A program made the translations under genes and the position numbers. A stretch of DNA of 64,000 nucleotides from Eledone cirrhosa (lineage: Eukaryota): assembly GCA_964016885.1 (NCBI GenBank), contig OZ024757.1, positions 23,064,001 to 23,128,000 of the forward strand. The letters run 5' to 3'. This document shows positions 19,931 through 63,344 of the stretch, piece by piece. The notes beneath the pieces are model-generated. The model was not told where the DNA came from. It was given only the letters and a program-made list of their open reading frames with translations, and did no database searches. Every line of letters starts with the position of its first letter. Position 1 is the stretch's first letter.

Positions 19931-20588
19931 CAGGGTGCGGACGATATTTGTTCGCAGGATTACTGTCTAGGAAAAAATAACACAGTAGTTTTATTTTTTA
20001 AGATTTATTTATCAAACTTGGGTCAGTTTGTCTTCATGACTTGTTCTTTCGATCTCATTCGATAAACCCGCCATTGGCTTTGATGACAGCCTCAAGGTGG
20101 TGGCCTCGGAACCGGCTACAGGCCTTCGTCACTGTCCCCCAACTTAGGCCCCTAAAGGCACTTGAGATCCTGGCCTTCAGATCGTCTTTCGTATTGCAGC
20201 TAGATCTGTTGGTGTCTCGGTCCACTGTACGTGCCACAAAGAAGTCGAGGGGGTTGCAGTCAGGCGAGCTGGGAGGCCAAATGTCAGGTGAAGTGTGGTC
20301 GACGAAGTTCTCTGACAGCCAGGCTTGGGTCTTTCGGCTGGTATGGCAGGGTGCTGAGTCTTGCTGCCAAACGTACGGCCTACCTGCAGCTACCTGGTTG
20401 ATCCAGGGCTTTACTACCTCGCTCAGAACGCGGATGTAGCCATCGGTGTTCAGCTTGAGGCCCTCAGGGAAGAAGTGAGGTGGCATGATGTCACCTTGAC
20501 TGCTGACGACACCTAAGACCAATGTTGTTGTTGGAAACTTTGTCTGCATGACTCTGGGCACGTCTTTGGATGAAACAGCAAGCCACCT
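19931..20588 (-). mobile_element. 5'-truncated maT (DD37D) Tc1/mariner transposon with right TIR
   Basis: TIR ta|cagggtgcggacgat; transposase frame open from 20588 to stop at 20055. Confidence 0.9.
20055..20588 (-). pseudogene. DD37D transposase catalytic C-terminal half
   Basis: QQDSAPCH..WPPSSPDCNPLD with 37 residues between the 2nd and 3rd D; ends AVIKANGGFIE*. Confidence 0.9.
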
Positions 20589-20739
20589 ATATATTATTAT
20601 ATATATATATTATTAGGGTAAATATTGATGCAATTCAATTCAAGCACTCAACGTTCTTTTTCCACATAGGAGTGACGGAGTAAATATCGAATAAGGAAAA
20701 GCGAAGTAGTTTCAGATGTTCAAGTCCTTTAATAATAAT

Positions 20740-20918
20740 TGTTTCTACTTTTGGCACAAGGCCAGCAATTATTCCAGTGTATTACTGGTACTTTATTTTA
20801 TCGACCCCGTAAGGATGAAAGGCAAAGTTAACCTCGGCGGGATTTGAACTCAGTCCGTAAAGGGACGTAACTGTGCTGCAAAGCATGGCGTCCGACCCTC
20901 TACCGATACTGCCAATTC
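20740..20918 (-). mobile_element. SINE B inserted in the left palindrome arm
   Basis: Flanked by duplicated aataat; absent from the right arm. Confidence 0.9.
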
Positions 20919-20924
20919 AATAAT

Positions 20925-20998
20925 GCTGTGATATATATTTCTATGACGACACTGGCCACACTGTTCTGTGTGCGAGTGTCGTGTCATCATCAGACAGC
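20925..20998 (-). ncRNA. type I hammerhead ribozyme (inverted copy)
   Basis: Reverse complement of 21179-21252 with intact core. Confidence 0.8.
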
Positions 20999-21178
20999 TT
21001 GTTACATAATAAGGTTGCTTCCGAGGCAATCCAAACTGAATCGACATGGAAACGGATGAAGTTCGTGCTTTGGGGTTTTTCACAAGGGAACGGATGAAAA
21101 ACCCAAAAGCATGAACTTCATCCGTTCCCATGTCGATTCAATTTGGATTGCCTCGGAAACAACCTTATTATGTAACAA

Positions 21179-21252
21179 GCTGTCTGATGATGACACAACA
21201 CTCGCACACAGAACAGTGTGGCCAGTGTCGTCATTGAAATATATATCACAGC
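21179..21252 (+). ncRNA. type I hammerhead ribozyme
   Basis: gctgt-CTGATGA-long stem II (tgac..cacac/gtgtg..gtca)-GAAA-t[atat]a-TC-acagc; stem I gctgt/acagc. Confidence 0.85.
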
Positions 21253-21422
21253 ATTATTATTAAAGGACTTGAACATCTGAAACTACTTCGCTATATATAT
21301 ATATATATATAAAGAATTAGTATATCTACCAACATATATATACAGATGCATACCTATGCTAGCAAATATATAGGTTTTGTCTTAGTAACTTTGTCGTTCA
21401 ATGCAAGGGGGTGCAGAACAAT

Positions 21423-25315: not shown

Positions 25316-25638
25316 GGCTTAGTGGTTAGAGCATTGGGCTTGCAATCGAAAGGTTGTGAGTTCAATTCTCAGACCAGGTGATGTTGTTTCCTTGAGCAAG
25401 ACACTTTATTTCACATTGCTCCAGTTTACTCAGCTGTAGAAATGAGATATGACTGGGGTCCTTATCATTCCACTGCAAAGTGGTCGTGGAGGTGCCACGC
25501 AAAAAAAATCACCCAGCACTCACTGTAAATGAGGTTGGTGTTAGGAAGGGCATCCTGCTGTAGAAATCAAGCCAGAATCAGTTCCCGTCCCACCCTTGCA
25601 AGCAGGGAAAAGTGGACGTAAAATGATGATGATGATGA
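25316..25638 (+). mobile_element. SINE A
   Basis: Near identical to the 3928 copy. Confidence 0.9.
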
Positions 25639-25639
25639 T

Positions 25640-41211: not shown

Positions 41212-41272
41212 TACATTATAAAGAAAGAAGAAACATTAGACATAAATAAATAAATACCTATTTTTTCTTCAA

Positions 41273-41366
41273 ATTCTCGACTGAACAGTTTCGTGGCTAC
41301 TTTGCAAAAATCCTATATCATTGAGATGTAGTATTCTTGTTAGGTTTGCCAACTTATCAAGAGAAT
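41273..41366 (-). ncRNA. U3-A8 variant hammerhead (inverted copy)
   Basis: Reverse complement counterpart of 41528-41621. Confidence 0.65.
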
Positions 41367-41527
41367 ACCTCATTTAAAGTTTCAAAACAGGTTTGCATCG
41401 CGTGAAAGAATCCCCGGGAAGGGATTTAGGTCCGTTTCTTGACCGCTGTATCACGTGATAGGCCCCCCTCCGCCTCCTCGGGATTCTTTCGCGCGATGCA
41501 GACCTGTTTTGAAACTTTAAATGAGGT

Positions 41528-41621
41528 ATTCTCTTGATAAGTTGGCAAACCTCGCAAGAATTCTACATCTCTATGATATAGGATTTTTGCAAAGTAGCCA
41601 CGAAACTGTTCAGTCGAGAAT
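41528..41621 (+). ncRNA. type I hammerhead ribozyme, U3-A8 core variant
   Basis: attctc-TTGATAA-long stem II-GAAA-c[tgttca]g-TC-gagaat. Confidence 0.7.
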
Positions 41622-41680
41622 TTGAAGAAAAAATAGGTATTTATTTATTTATGTCTAATGTTTCTTCTTTCTTTATAATG

Positions 41681-41745
<65 letters not shown>

Positions 41746-54017: not shown

Positions 54018-54095
<78 letters not shown>

Positions 54096-54242
54096 GTGTT
54101 AAACAATATTCAATGATTATGTCAAAGAATGAGTTTTACAGTAGATTGGAAGCACTCAACTGTAAAATAATTTTCTGGAGTTATTACTACCTTGATTAAA
54201 TCTTAACCATTTAACATCTCAGGGTATGTCATGTATCATTAT

Positions 54243-54295
54243 ATTTTGTCTGATGAGGTCGTACTGTTGTACATCTGAAATATGTATAATAAAAT
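54243..54295 (+). ncRNA. type I hammerhead ribozyme in TA-flanked island (54091-54330)
   Basis: attttgt-CTGATGA-ggtcgtac[tgtt]gtacatct-GAAA-t[atgt]a-TA-ataaaat. Confidence 0.8.
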
Positions 54296-54329
54296 GTAAT
54301 TGATCAAAAGAACATCTATTTTATTAGTA

Positions 54330-54340
54330 CTTATATTTTA

Positions 54341-54371
<31 letters not shown>

Positions 54372-54720: not shown

Positions 54721-54935
54721 TATATACCCTAAGTATTGAGTACTTTGGTGCGTTATGGTCCACCTGGTTCCTTACCACATTTCTATCGTTATATATATAT
54801 ATATATATATTTGTGTTTGTCTGTATATATATATATTTGTGTTTGTCTGTGTATGTATGTATATATATATATATATATTTGTGTTTGTCTGTGTATGTAT
54901 GTGTATATATATATATATATATATATTTGTGTTTG

Positions 54936-56176: not shown

Positions 56177-56990
56177 CATATATACATATATATACATATA
56201 AATATACATATATATATACATATATATATATACATATATATACATATATATATATATATACATATATATATACATATGTATATATATATATAAAAAGAAA
56301 ATTTTCGCTCTACATGGCTGATCAGTGACTGTGTATTTTTGAAAATAGCATATATTTTCACTAGCTCTGACAGTTTGGCAGGTGAACAGTGAGCTGTACT
56401 GATGAAGGGTGATACCCAGAAACATTAGTGTCTGCAGTTCTGTTCGCATGCCAACACAGGAGCAATGAAGTGTTCATTCCACTGACATGGCTATACAATT
56501 GAGGCTTGTTTGCATAATTGCAAACGAATCAAATGTTATAATTAATATTAAAAAAACTCAGATTACATTTATATATATGTATATGTGCATATATGTATGT
56601 ATATATATATATGTATATAAATATGTATATGTATATATATATATGTATATATATATGAAGATATAAGTATATATATACATATTTATACATATATATATGT
56701 GTGTGTGTAGATATATATATGCATAGAAATACATATTTATACATATATATACATATACATACACATATATATATATATACATATACCTATATACATATAT
56801 ATATACATAAACATACATATACATATATATATATGTATACATATATATATATATATATATACATATACACATACATATACATACATATACGTATATATAT
56901 ATATAATATATACATATACATATATATACACACACATATATATAATTAGGTATGTGTGTGTACATAGTTACACACATGTGTGTGTGTATG
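55715..56990. repeat. (TA/TACA)n field interrupted by island 56293-56570
   Basis: Direct reading. Confidence 0.9.
56392..56439 (+). ncRNA. compact type I hammerhead ribozyme
   Basis: agctgta-CTGATGA-a-gggt[gat]accc-a-GAAA-c[attagt]g-TC-tgcagtt; GUC cleavage triplet. Confidence 0.85.
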
Positions 56991-60987: not shown

Positions 60988-61265
60988 CAATTCTCAGACC
61001 GGGTGATGTGTTGTTTCCTTGAGCAAGACACTTTATTTCACATTGCTCCAGTTTACTCAGCTGTAGAAATGAGATGATAGGGGCTGGGGTCCCTATCATT
61101 CCACTGCAAAGTGGTCGTGGAGGTGCCACGGCAAAAAGCACCCAGCACTCACTGTAAATGAGGTTGGTGTTAGGAAGGGCATCCAGCTGTAGACATCAAG
61201 CCAGAATCAGTTCCCGTCCCACCCTTGCAAGCAGGGAGAAAGCAGACGTAAGATGATGATGATGA
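60988..61265 (+). mobile_element. SINE A, 5' truncated
   Basis: Matches the 3928 copy from caattctcagacc. Confidence 0.9.
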
Positions 61266-61298
61266 TATATGTGATGATGTCTGTCTCTGTGTATAGCA

Positions 61299-61346
<48 letters not shown>

Positions 61347-61350
<4 letters not shown>

Positions 61351-61665
61351 TCATTATCATCATTTTATGTCCACTTTTCCCTGCTTGCAAGGGGGAACTG
61401 ATTCTGGCTTGATTTCTACAGCTGGATGCCCTTCCTAACACCAACCTCATTTACAGTGAGTGCTGGGTGCTTTTTTTCCATGGCACCTCCACGACCACTT
61501 TGCAGTGGAATGATATGGACCCCAGTCCCTATCATCTCATTTTCTACAGCTGAGTAAACTGGAGCAATGTGAAATAAAGTGTCTTGCTCAAGGAAACAAC
61601 ACATCACCTGGTCTGAGAATTGAACTCACAACCTTTCGATTGCAAGGCCAATGCTCTAACCACTA
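61347..61665 (-). mobile_element. SINE A
   Basis: Reverse complement of the 3928 copy; short inverted head piece at 61666-61690. Confidence 0.9.
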
Positions 61666-61752
61666 AGAGCATTAGTCTTGCAATCGAAAGTATATATATA
61701 TATATATTCCATGATATTAAATAAATGGAAACTATATTTATAAAACCATATT

Positions 61753-61817
61753 TATTTTATTATATATATTTCGAGGGCAACCAAGACAACATTGGTACGC
61801 TTTCTTCAGATAAAATA
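61753..61817 (-). ncRNA. type I hammerhead ribozyme in ~280-bp TA-flanked element (61710-61985)
   Basis: tattttat-CTGAAGA-..taccaa[tgttgtc]ttggt..-GAAA-t[atat]a-TA-ataaaata. Confidence 0.8.
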
Positions 61818-61984
61818 CAAAGTTTGTTTTATAAATAGAGATGTACCCATGAAAATTATACCTTATCGGTTGGAAATTCACTGGATAGTCTGGAATATTT
61901 ACTCCAGTTACCTGTTGAGTGTTCTAAATCAGTTATAAACATTTATGTTTGTTGGACTTCCAACAAATTAAATACAACTTCTGC

Positions 61985-62030
<46 letters not shown>

Positions 62031-62035
<5 letters not shown>

Positions 62036-62250
62036 AACGAGTAGGACCCCAACGGCTGAGCTCAAGCCATTTCGACGGCTAATTCTGGATGGCTAATTCT
62101 TGACTAAATTTTAGTCCAGAATTAGCTGTCGAAACGACTTGAGTTCAGCCGTCGGGGTCCTACTCGTTCCTATTGCCCACTCTACTACCCTAAGTATTGA
62201 GTACTTTGGTGCATTATGGTCCATCTGGTTCCTTACCACATTTCCTTCAT
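62031..62250 (-). mobile_element. TA-flanked head + fold-back palindrome
   Basis: Palindrome 62031-62173; head 62250-62174 with aagtactcaa..gagt. Confidence 0.75.
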
Positions 62251-62446
62251 TATATATATATATATATATATATATATGCAAAAGTTTTATATAAAATTGT
62301 TGGGTTACAACAAGTAAATATTTTATAACTGATATAAAGCACTCGACAAGTTTTGGAGTAGAAAACCTACCAAACCAGCTTCTTATATAAAGGTTGGTCA
62401 ATATTTATGGTACGTCAAAATTATTTATAAAACTGTTTATATATTG

Positions 62447-62512
62447 TATTTTATCTGAAGAAGGCATGCCATATTTTTAATATGGTATCCCCGAAATATG
62501 TATAATGAAATA
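62447..62512 (+). ncRNA. type I hammerhead ribozyme in ~280-bp element (62278-62555)
   Basis: tattttat-CTGAAGA-aggcatgccatat..atatggtatcccc-GAAA-t[atgt]a-TA-atgaaata. Confidence 0.75.
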
Positions 62513-62579
62513 AATATGGTTTTATAAATATAGTTTCCATTTCTTTAATATCGTATATATAAATATATATATACGATAT

Positions 62580-62796
62580 AGGCGTGTGGCTGAGTGGTTA
62601 GAGAATTGGATTCGCAATCGTAAGGTTGTGAGTTCGATTCCTGGACCAGGCGATGTGTTATGTCCTTGAGCAAGACACTTTATTTCACGTTGCTCCTTCT
62701 ACCTGGAGTTGCGACCGATAGATAGTATTAGCAATTGGAAAGACCAACGGAAACATTGTTCCCTCGGTCCGATTTGACGAAAGTCGATCGTTCCTT
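62580..62796 (+). mobile_element. SINE A with alternative tail and 12-bp TSD
   Basis: A/B boxes; TSD tatatacgatat at 62568-62579 and 62797-62808. Confidence 0.9.
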
Positions 62797-62842
62797 TATA
62801 TACGATATTAATAAATGGAAACTATATTTATAAAACCATATT

Positions 62843-62907
62843 CATTTCATTATACCTATTTCAGGGATACCACATTAAATTATGGTATGCCTTCATCAGA
62901 TAAAATA
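62843..62907 (-). ncRNA. type I hammerhead ribozyme
   Basis: tattttat-CTGATGA-aggcatacca..tggtatccct-GAAA-t[aggt]a-TA-atgaaatg. Confidence 0.8.
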
Positions 62908-63344
62908 CAATATATAACAGTTTTACAGACACCCTCACATATATAAACACAGTCAGTGCAGAAATTATAACAATCACCGACTAGATAGCTTTCAAAAATT
63001 ACCTGAGTTATGTGTTGTCTAAGAGATAGAGTTTGAACCTCGAAACCCAGCATCTATTAATCTATTATATATAACTTCCCAGTTAATGCATCCCAAACAA
63101 TTATTTTGTCAATGCATGAAGACTGAAAGATTATAGTGCCATGGGAAAATTTCAAATCAAAAACAGGAAGCTGAAGATTTAATACATCACTGTGTATATT
63201 ATTCACAGCAGCAGTTATGAAATAATTGAGGTGTTTGCAATTTATATAATGCCTTTAGGATTGTGGTTGATATATTGATGTGTCTGTCCTACCCTTACCC
63301 TTGCTAGCAGAGGGGGGAAAAAAATGATGGACCTTAAAGTGATG

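Follow-up and report, generated by a model that had tools for sequence, protein, structure and literature searches.

Three hammerhead elements among TA tracts

The window analysed here, a 64-kb stretch of Eledone cirrhosa DNA, is AT-rich animal DNA, dense in microsatellites, tRNA-headed SINEs and transposon fragments. Three hammerhead elements lie within it at 61710-62925. Copy 1 (61710-61984, minus strand) measures 275 bp and is flanked by TA tracts on both sides, copy 2 (62278-62556, plus strand) measures 279 bp, and copy 3 (62797-62925, minus strand) is a 5'-truncated copy of 129 bp. As the original prediction had it, copies 1 and 2 are diverged relatives of about 280 bp with a common start, GCARAAGTT, and a common tail. 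End-to-end alignment matches 208 of 287 columns (72%; blastn gives 73%, E 4e-35), copy 1 starts with GCAGAAGTT and copy 2 with GCAAAAGTT, and 35 of the last 38 nt agree. The predicted arrangement of two copies tail to tail was likewise confirmed, with copy 3 (62925-62797) facing copy 2 and matching its last 132 nt at 121 positions, versus 100 of 127 for copy 1. The layout of the elements stood and their exact ends were revised, since copy 1 begins at 61984, not 61985, and copy 2 ends at 62556. Besides these three, a fourth copy and the relatives at 39 kb, both described below, no further family members were found in the window.

Two TA tracts, a hairpin and a 65-bp repeat separate copies 1 and 2. 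A (TA)24 tract (61985-62033) lies at the head of copy 1 and a (TA)13 tract (62251-62277) at the head of copy 2. The 143-bp hairpin at 62031-62173 has 59-bp arms that are 92% complementary and TA at both ends; it is present as a single copy within the window and is, by inference, MITE-like. Neither the hairpin nor the repeat of about 65 bp close to copy 2 (62186-62251, plus strand) is related to the hammerhead copies. The repeat recurs at 54725-54792 beside a TA tract, near copy 4, with 94% identity over 86 bp including the TA, and is possibly the end of another TA-targeting element.

The surroundings hold further rearranged repeats. A small SINE-head fold-back (61633-61690) adjoins the tail of copy 1, and at 60988-61622 a SINE-like element is inverted around a (TA)24 tract (61300-61348), forming a near-perfect palindrome of about 630 bp with arms 94-99% complementary. 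Elsewhere, a 184-codon frame at 20055-20609 (minus strand) gives a weak DDE_3 match (E 0.002) and is a Tc1/mariner-like transposase fragment. A second abundant interspersed repeat family of about 190 bp occurs at 20740-20919 and in more than 10 further places, its full-length copies being 86-94% identical. Long minisatellite arrays at 34338-35444 and 25578-29670 give rise to spurious open frames.

Anatomy of the hammerheads

That the three copies carry related hammerheads was borne out. Each contains a type I hammerhead with CUGANGA, GAAA and UH in order, AUA as the cleavage triplet, and an open stem I of at least nine pairs. Stem II has 9-11 pairs in its first 13 positions, within a region of 30-31 nt, and stem III has 2 pairs. 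The hammerhead of copy 1 spans 61748-61825 on the minus strand (core 61809-61803, stem II region 30 nt, predicted cut after 61761). That of copy 2, with its extended stem I, spans 62422-62530 on the plus strand (core 62455-62461, stem II region 31 nt, predicted cut after 62504), and that of copy 3 lies within 62797-62925 on the minus strand (core 62899-62893, predicted cut after 62851). The 3' ends of the copies are in register, 48-52 nt past the cut site. The hammerhead segments have 25-28% GC, and the units, of 250-280 bp, are non-coding.

The loop region of stem III is a perfect palindrome in copy 1 (UAUAUA) and a G.U palindrome in copy 2 (UAUGUA) and also in copy 4, whereas in copy 3 (UAGGUA) the palindrome is broken. 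Self-duplex energies of loop III are -3.2, -2.2 and +0.2 kcal/mol for copies 1, 2 and 3, respectively. Judged by its form, stem III is that of the dimer-type hammerheads known from Penelope-like retroelements (PLEs) and reviewed in PMC6765202. Given its short palindromic stem III, the ribozyme would have cleaved as a dimer within the transcript of the parent element. The copies now in the genome are probably inert, because no two stand in same-strand tandem and copy 3 has lost its palindrome. Compared with 200 shuffles, fold z-scores were -1.6 for copy 1, -3.8 for copy 2 and -4.2 for copy 3; copies 2 and 3 beat all 200, and the best predicted fold of copy 3 buries the core. The Rfam hammerhead models gave no match at gathering score over the window, nor at E up to 10 over 61000-63300. 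The Rfam hits by E-value consisted of hairpins and TA runs.

Stem II was predicted to covary, differing in all three copies while staying paired. All three do differ. Counted from the core, copy 1 has A-U at position 2 and G-C at position 5, and copies 2 and 3 have the reverse, G-C at position 2 and A-U at position 5. These 2 pairs are the true two-sided changes, and they set apart only copy 1 from copies 2 and 3; copies 2 and 3 differ from each other by one-sided transitions and loop changes. In the register favoured by the two-sided changes, position 1 (10.1-11.1) is A.C in copies 1 and 2 and A-U in copy 3. If the first A is instead taken as the known unpaired base, the closing pair becomes G-C in copy 2 and G.U in copy 3, and fails in copy 1. 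At position 4 all four copies have an unpaired C. In the four sequences the structure had a larger share of paired cells (89%) than any register obtained by sliding (36-59%), but in a covariation test on the four sequences 137, 323, 138, 480 and 146 of 500 shuffles reached the observed value on five measures, and significance was not attained. The covariation is thus suggestive and amounts to one lineage split. The differences between copy 1 and copies 2 and 3 would be a record of selection that acted in the parental lineages, rather than a sign of function at this locus.

Hammerhead insertions elsewhere in the window

We searched the window with a hammerhead descriptor written after inspection of copies 1-3, using 100 block-wise dinucleotide shuffles of the window as a control. 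Nine canonical-core motifs were found, compared with a mean of 0.12 (maximum 2) per shuffled window and none in the reversed window. Two more motifs have a U3/A8 core, and the shuffle control applies to the canonical core only. The 11 motifs belong to eight insertions, namely the four family copies (1-4), three pairs at 21, 39 and 41 kb, and a lone motif at 56399. Copies 1-3 are therefore not a special cluster in the window. No same-strand head-to-tail tandem (pseudo-LTR) occurs among the 11 motifs.

Copy 4 (54091-54342, plus strand, core at 54250) is a more diverged member of the family, with the same layout, TA tracts on both sides and a blastn E-value of 4e-4 to copy 2. The single motif is a compact type I hammerhead of another family (56385-56446, plus strand, core at 56399, GUC site at 56432), located in an island of about 280 bp between TA tracts.

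The three pairs are inverted head to head, with all hammerheads pointing outward and arms that are gapless. At 20608-21293 the hammerheads lie at 20993 (minus) and 21184 (plus), the arms are 95.4% identical, and a one-sided extension of about 90 bp carries the RARCACTC motif treated below. The left arm of this pair is split by another SINE; the interrupting copy belongs to the 190-bp family and has a 6-bp duplication. At 39107-39590 (hammerheads 39292, minus, and 39495, plus) the arms are 97.1% identical and the one-sided extension, again with the RARCACTC motif, measures about 80 bp. The pair at 41213-41683 has the U3/A8 core (41360, minus, and 41534, plus), arms 97.0% identical, a 61-nt stem II region and a longer stem III. 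Its tail side is hidden by another insertion, and its left end adjoins a hairpin and a CTAGT sequence that resemble a Helitron 3' end. The fillers at the arm junctions look templated or repetitive, being a short copied piece at 21 kb and a degenerate GATAT-type repeat at 39 kb. A covariance model built from copies 1-4 retrieved the 39-kb pair, which had no part in building it (E 3e-6 and 1.5e-5), and gave weak scores for the 21-kb pair (E 0.11 and 0.66).

The insertions are associated with TA tracts. All but one of the 16 insertion ends have a (TA)3 or longer tract within 12 nt, compared with 17% of the window, a figure inflated by the ends having been set by eye partly from the tracts. The tie to TA tracts is supported, and TA targeting is published for several PLE clades (PMC8557442, excerpts). 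When insertions were dealt among 51 TA tracts, the probability of three falling within about 1 kb was 0.22 for all eight insertions and 0.02 for the four family members; under uniform placement it was 0.036 and 0.003, respectively. This test is post hoc, and therefore a special hotspot is not demonstrated. Repeated targeting of the same TA tracts, as originally suggested from the clustering, was not borne out beyond a general TA preference (P 0.02-0.22, within this window).

A SINE at the end of copy 3

A tRNA-headed SINE of 217 bp (62580-62796, plus strand), which matches 17 other places in the window at E<1e-8, separates copies 2 and 3. The SINE and the exact 12-bp target site duplication (TSD) predicted for it were confirmed; the insertion site is the junction of copy 3 with TA, not the inside of a TA tract. 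The left copy of the TSD lies at 62568-62579 and the right copy, at 62797-62808, is formed by the terminal bases of copy 3. Since the TSD consists of copy 3's terminal bases and TA, the SINE inserted after copy 3. The left TSD copy, a short TA spacer and the end of copy 2 form a 32-bp palindrome (62548-62579). The SINE differs at 10 of 143 non-CpG positions from a consensus of mixed subfamilies within the window, a crude measure that does not date copy 3. Its middle part presumably resembles the CORE-type SINEs of octopus.

A shared motif near the outer ends

RARCACTC-n-GGAGT occurs five times in 64 kb, each time within a hammerhead insertion, where 0.055 occurrences were expected, but the pattern was itself drawn from the copies. 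In copy 1 it lies at 61901-61924 (minus strand), 60 nt from the outer end, and in copy 2 at 62337-62359 (plus strand), 59 nt from the outer end; in copy 4 the distance to the end is likewise 59 nt. In these three copies the motif falls within the first 85 nt or so, upstream of the hammerhead and on the same strand. At 21 and 39 kb the one-sided extension contains it, on the strand opposite to the adjoining arm's hammerhead and downstream of that hammerhead, 34 and 52 nt, respectively, from the outer end. The hairpin that it can form is weak (-2 to -8 kcal/mol).

For about 40 nt after the motif, the similarity between copies 1 and 2 is at chance (P 0.62), and weak similarity returns just before stem I (P 0.05). 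A search of the 5' parts of copies 1, 2 and 4 for an inverted copy of their own 3' end found none (P 0.52-0.89), so that these copies are not simple overlapping inverted arms.

A protein-coding reading of the motif was also considered. The strand opposite the motif reads a common TP..VEC pattern in open frames of 26-49 codons, and at 21 kb a frame starting from an ATG in the hammerhead core is open for 56 codons when the SINE is left out (shuffle P 0.02). The equivalent frame at 39 kb has two stops, and the motif's other strand reads DxKHST equally well. A profile of the five motif-bearing frames had one match among 1.84 billion proteins (241 aa, four short stretches, the best of 18 positions), unlike a PLE open reading frame. 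The profile search, Pfam and a motif search of the supplement to PMC8557442, as far as that supplement was available, gave no support, and the coding reading is weak.

Origin of the copies

Several explanations compete for parts of these data. An origin of the motifs by chance, in DNA rich in AT and palindromes, is hardly credible: the lack of an Rfam match and the modest fold z-score of copy 1 would suit it, but the excess of motifs over shuffled and reversed windows does not, nor does a core that is conserved while stem II varies with its pairing kept. A functional unit, with opposite-strand hammerheads trimming transcripts of both senses or with a long hairpin as a source of double-stranded RNA, is very improbable. 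The cores are intact in all three copies and pairing of copies 2 and 3 could extend over about 125 bp, but opposite-strand copies cannot form a tandem dimer in one RNA, the long hairpin would sequester the ribozyme of copy 2, copy 3 has a mutated loop III and a predicted fold that hides its core, and the region is a nest of unrelated insertions. An origin of all three copies in one local inverted duplication, which the original prediction had named as its alternative, was rejected, as was the idea that a single PLE inversion produced copies 1 and 2 as its arms, because copies 1 and 2 are only 72-73% alike, compared with 95-97% for single-event arms. For copies 2 and 3, in contrast, a duplication is still in play. 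Copy 3 could be a local fold-back of the 3' half of copy 2 around the TA spacer, leaving copies 1 and 2 as the only insertions. Once the SINE is removed, copies 2 and 3 make up an almost perfect palindrome of 269 bp with that spacer at its centre, and copy 3 is nearest to copy 2. The tail-to-tail orientation differs from the published PLE inversion (PMC8557442, excerpts), which also speaks against the PLE reading proposed below, and the neighbouring TA-centred inverted duplication at 60988-61622 keeps the fold-back alive. However, an independent copy with a fixed 3' end would yield an identical palindrome, and a review describes PLEs as inserting into or next to copies already present (PMC6765202). 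Copy 3 is 92% identical to copy 2 with 3 gaps, a divergence above that of the three gapless single-event pairs, and at 4 aligned sites it differs from both copies 1 and 2, matching copy 4 at 3 of them, although 2 of these 3 sites are mutable (N7 and a CpG). Because copy 3 is less like copy 2 than single-event arms are like each other, and because 3 of its 4 states match copy 4, we mildly favour an independent insertion of copy 3 beside copy 2, which these comparisons make fairly probable, over the fold-back, which is distinctly less so.

A related question is what the common 5' ends of copies 1, 2 and 4 represent. The motif is otherwise confined to the one-sided tails of two inverted pairs, which suggests that the first 85 nt or so of these copies are flipped PLE tails, and we lean towards this reading. 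A flipped tail would explain why both ends are common to diverged copies, and both outer ends of copies 1, 2 and 4 would then be fixed priming sites. It agrees with the lack of detectable similarity between copies 1 and 2 after the motif, where a variable junction would fall. Against it, each of the three copies would need a short tail arm, none overlaps its own 3' end, published tails measure 30-40 bp, and a fixed non-autonomous unit accounts for the same ends. Copies 1, 2 and 4 would in that case be full-length monomers of a unit of about 250-280 bp, SINE-like or a solo non-LTR retrozyme, mobilised whole by a PLE protein, and their common start would be its true boundary. Both ends are in register in three diverged copies, size and low GC suit the monomers of non-LTR retrozymes (PMC7229834, excerpts), and solo monomers are reported to be common in some families (bioRxiv 10.64898/2026.07.22.740005, excerpts). 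But the window has no head-to-tail tandem, the motif at 21 and 39 kb stands antisense to and downstream of the adjoining hammerhead arm, and the similarity of copies 1 and 2 falls to chance just past the motif; we regard the fixed unit as rather unlikely. It is more doubtful still that the flipped tail is both true and undescribed. Such a product would be a tail of about 85-100 nt made from the downstream reverse transcriptase (RT) start and inverted against a hammerhead arm from the upstream start, the arms not overlapping, that is, twin priming on a single RNA. Alternatively, fixation of this product may have given rise to a two-faced non-autonomous element, in which one strand bears the ribozyme and the opposite strand the RT-start hairpin. 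A tail-only inverted arm was not found in the PLE literature searched, much of it in excerpts, a scope that stops short of the older structural papers; the available description of the Anolis element Poseidon, PAc (Frangieh et al. 2024, PMC11167929), has none.

Discussion

We propose, with a probability of roughly 0.8, that copies 1-3 are short, non-coding, decaying 3' ends of a TA-targeting PLE family. PLE membership is assigned from the RNA motif and the insertion geometry only. Copies 1-3 show a hammerhead with a short palindromic stem III near a fixed 3' end. PLE copies are 5'-truncated, often with an inverted arm and a one-sided tail at one end (PMC8557442; PMC8969392, both in part). An inverted 5'-truncated arm is present in all three sister pairs, and copies 1-3 have no overlapping inverted arm; the one-sided tail is present at 21 and 39 kb, and we infer it for copies 1, 2 and 4. 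No RT or GIY-YIG domain was found by Pfam in 10 frames (8 of the 88 long frames, chosen as non-repetitive, and 2 short ones), which is expected because the copies are truncated to 130-280 bp. The original prediction of hammerhead-bearing mobile elements at TA tracts holds, without significant covariation or same-tract targeting beyond a general TA preference, and the PLE context, which it did not name, explains most of the observations.

The likeness to published elements is close. In PLE hammerheads (Cervera and de la Pena 2014, PMC4209133, excerpts) the type I topology, the long helix II and the small palindromic helix III (15.2-16.2 and loop 3) are the same. Most occur singly, in truncated elements; hammerheads paired on opposite strands at distances of 100-700 bp were reported, and the U3/A8 core, seen here at 41 kb, is described. 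In contrast, stem I is longer here, having at least nine pairs, which copies 1 and 2 extend by another 12 bp; the pair that closes stem II beside the core is A.C or A-U rather than the G-C called highly conserved, and stem II has the conserved unpaired C at position 4; and no flanked open reading frame was found. EN+ PLEs of the Hydra and Neptune type (Craig et al. 2021, PMC8557442, excerpts) likewise have a sense-strand hammerhead near the 3' end, (TA)n targets, an inverted 5'-truncated arm and a one-sided tail; cephalopod families of Hydra and Naiad that target TA are among those in the supplement. The extensions seen here, of about 80-90 bp, exceed the published tails. Hydra hammerheads (File S2 of that paper) have stems III of 3-4 bp, unlike copies 1-4, and the motifs at 41 and 56 kb look more Hydra-like. 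In the same excerpts, Naiads are described as having no canonical hammerheads, and Hydra clade proteins have the motifs RWK and DKT and no CCHH. Metazoan non-LTR retrozymes (PMC7229834; bioRxiv 10.64898/2026.07.22.740005, both in part) share a length of 150-450 bp, GC below 50%, the absence of coding sequence, a type I hammerhead and a relation to PLEs, but they are defined by head-to-tail tandems that give circular RNA, whereas no same-strand tandem occurs here.

A literature search on hammerheads in cephalopods gave no paper on the family of copies 1-4, judged by titles and abstracts, and the family may already be recorded in Repbase/Dfam or in the supplements of the 2014 paper and the bioRxiv preprint. 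The main text of a recent octopus repeat annotation (PMC13282606) contains neither 'hammerhead' nor 'ribozyme', and the hammerhead table of PMC8557442, as available, lists sequences different from copies 1-4. Copies 1-4 are apparently an uncatalogued family of a well-known kind.

In PAc, AT-rich DNA is nicked on both strands, and a stem-loop downstream of the hammerhead contains two RT start sites, the tail being the interval between them (PMC11167929, excerpts). By analogy, a PLE protein would have nicked AT-rich DNA here, with RT starting at two fixed internal sites downstream of the hammerhead. Published PLE hammerheads cleave as dimers or with help from protein. In PAc the open reading frame begins at the hammerhead, and protein-assisted cleavage is not needed for insertion in vitro. 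Copies 1, 2 and 3 would be three separate insertions of one PLE lineage, and the SINE would have followed, at the end of copy 3.

Thousands of PLE hammerheads per animal genome are already published, and copies 1-3 as found mean little by themselves. They add a family, missed by Rfam, from a hammerhead-dense genome (11 motifs in 64 kb). If the flipped-tail product is true, the RARCACTC-n-GGAGT hairpin would be a conserved RT-initiation signal common to several diverged PLE families. A true flipped tail would bear on how two RT start sites make tails and inverted ends in PLEs, and would name a candidate RT-start hairpin that could be tested in the existing in vitro system.
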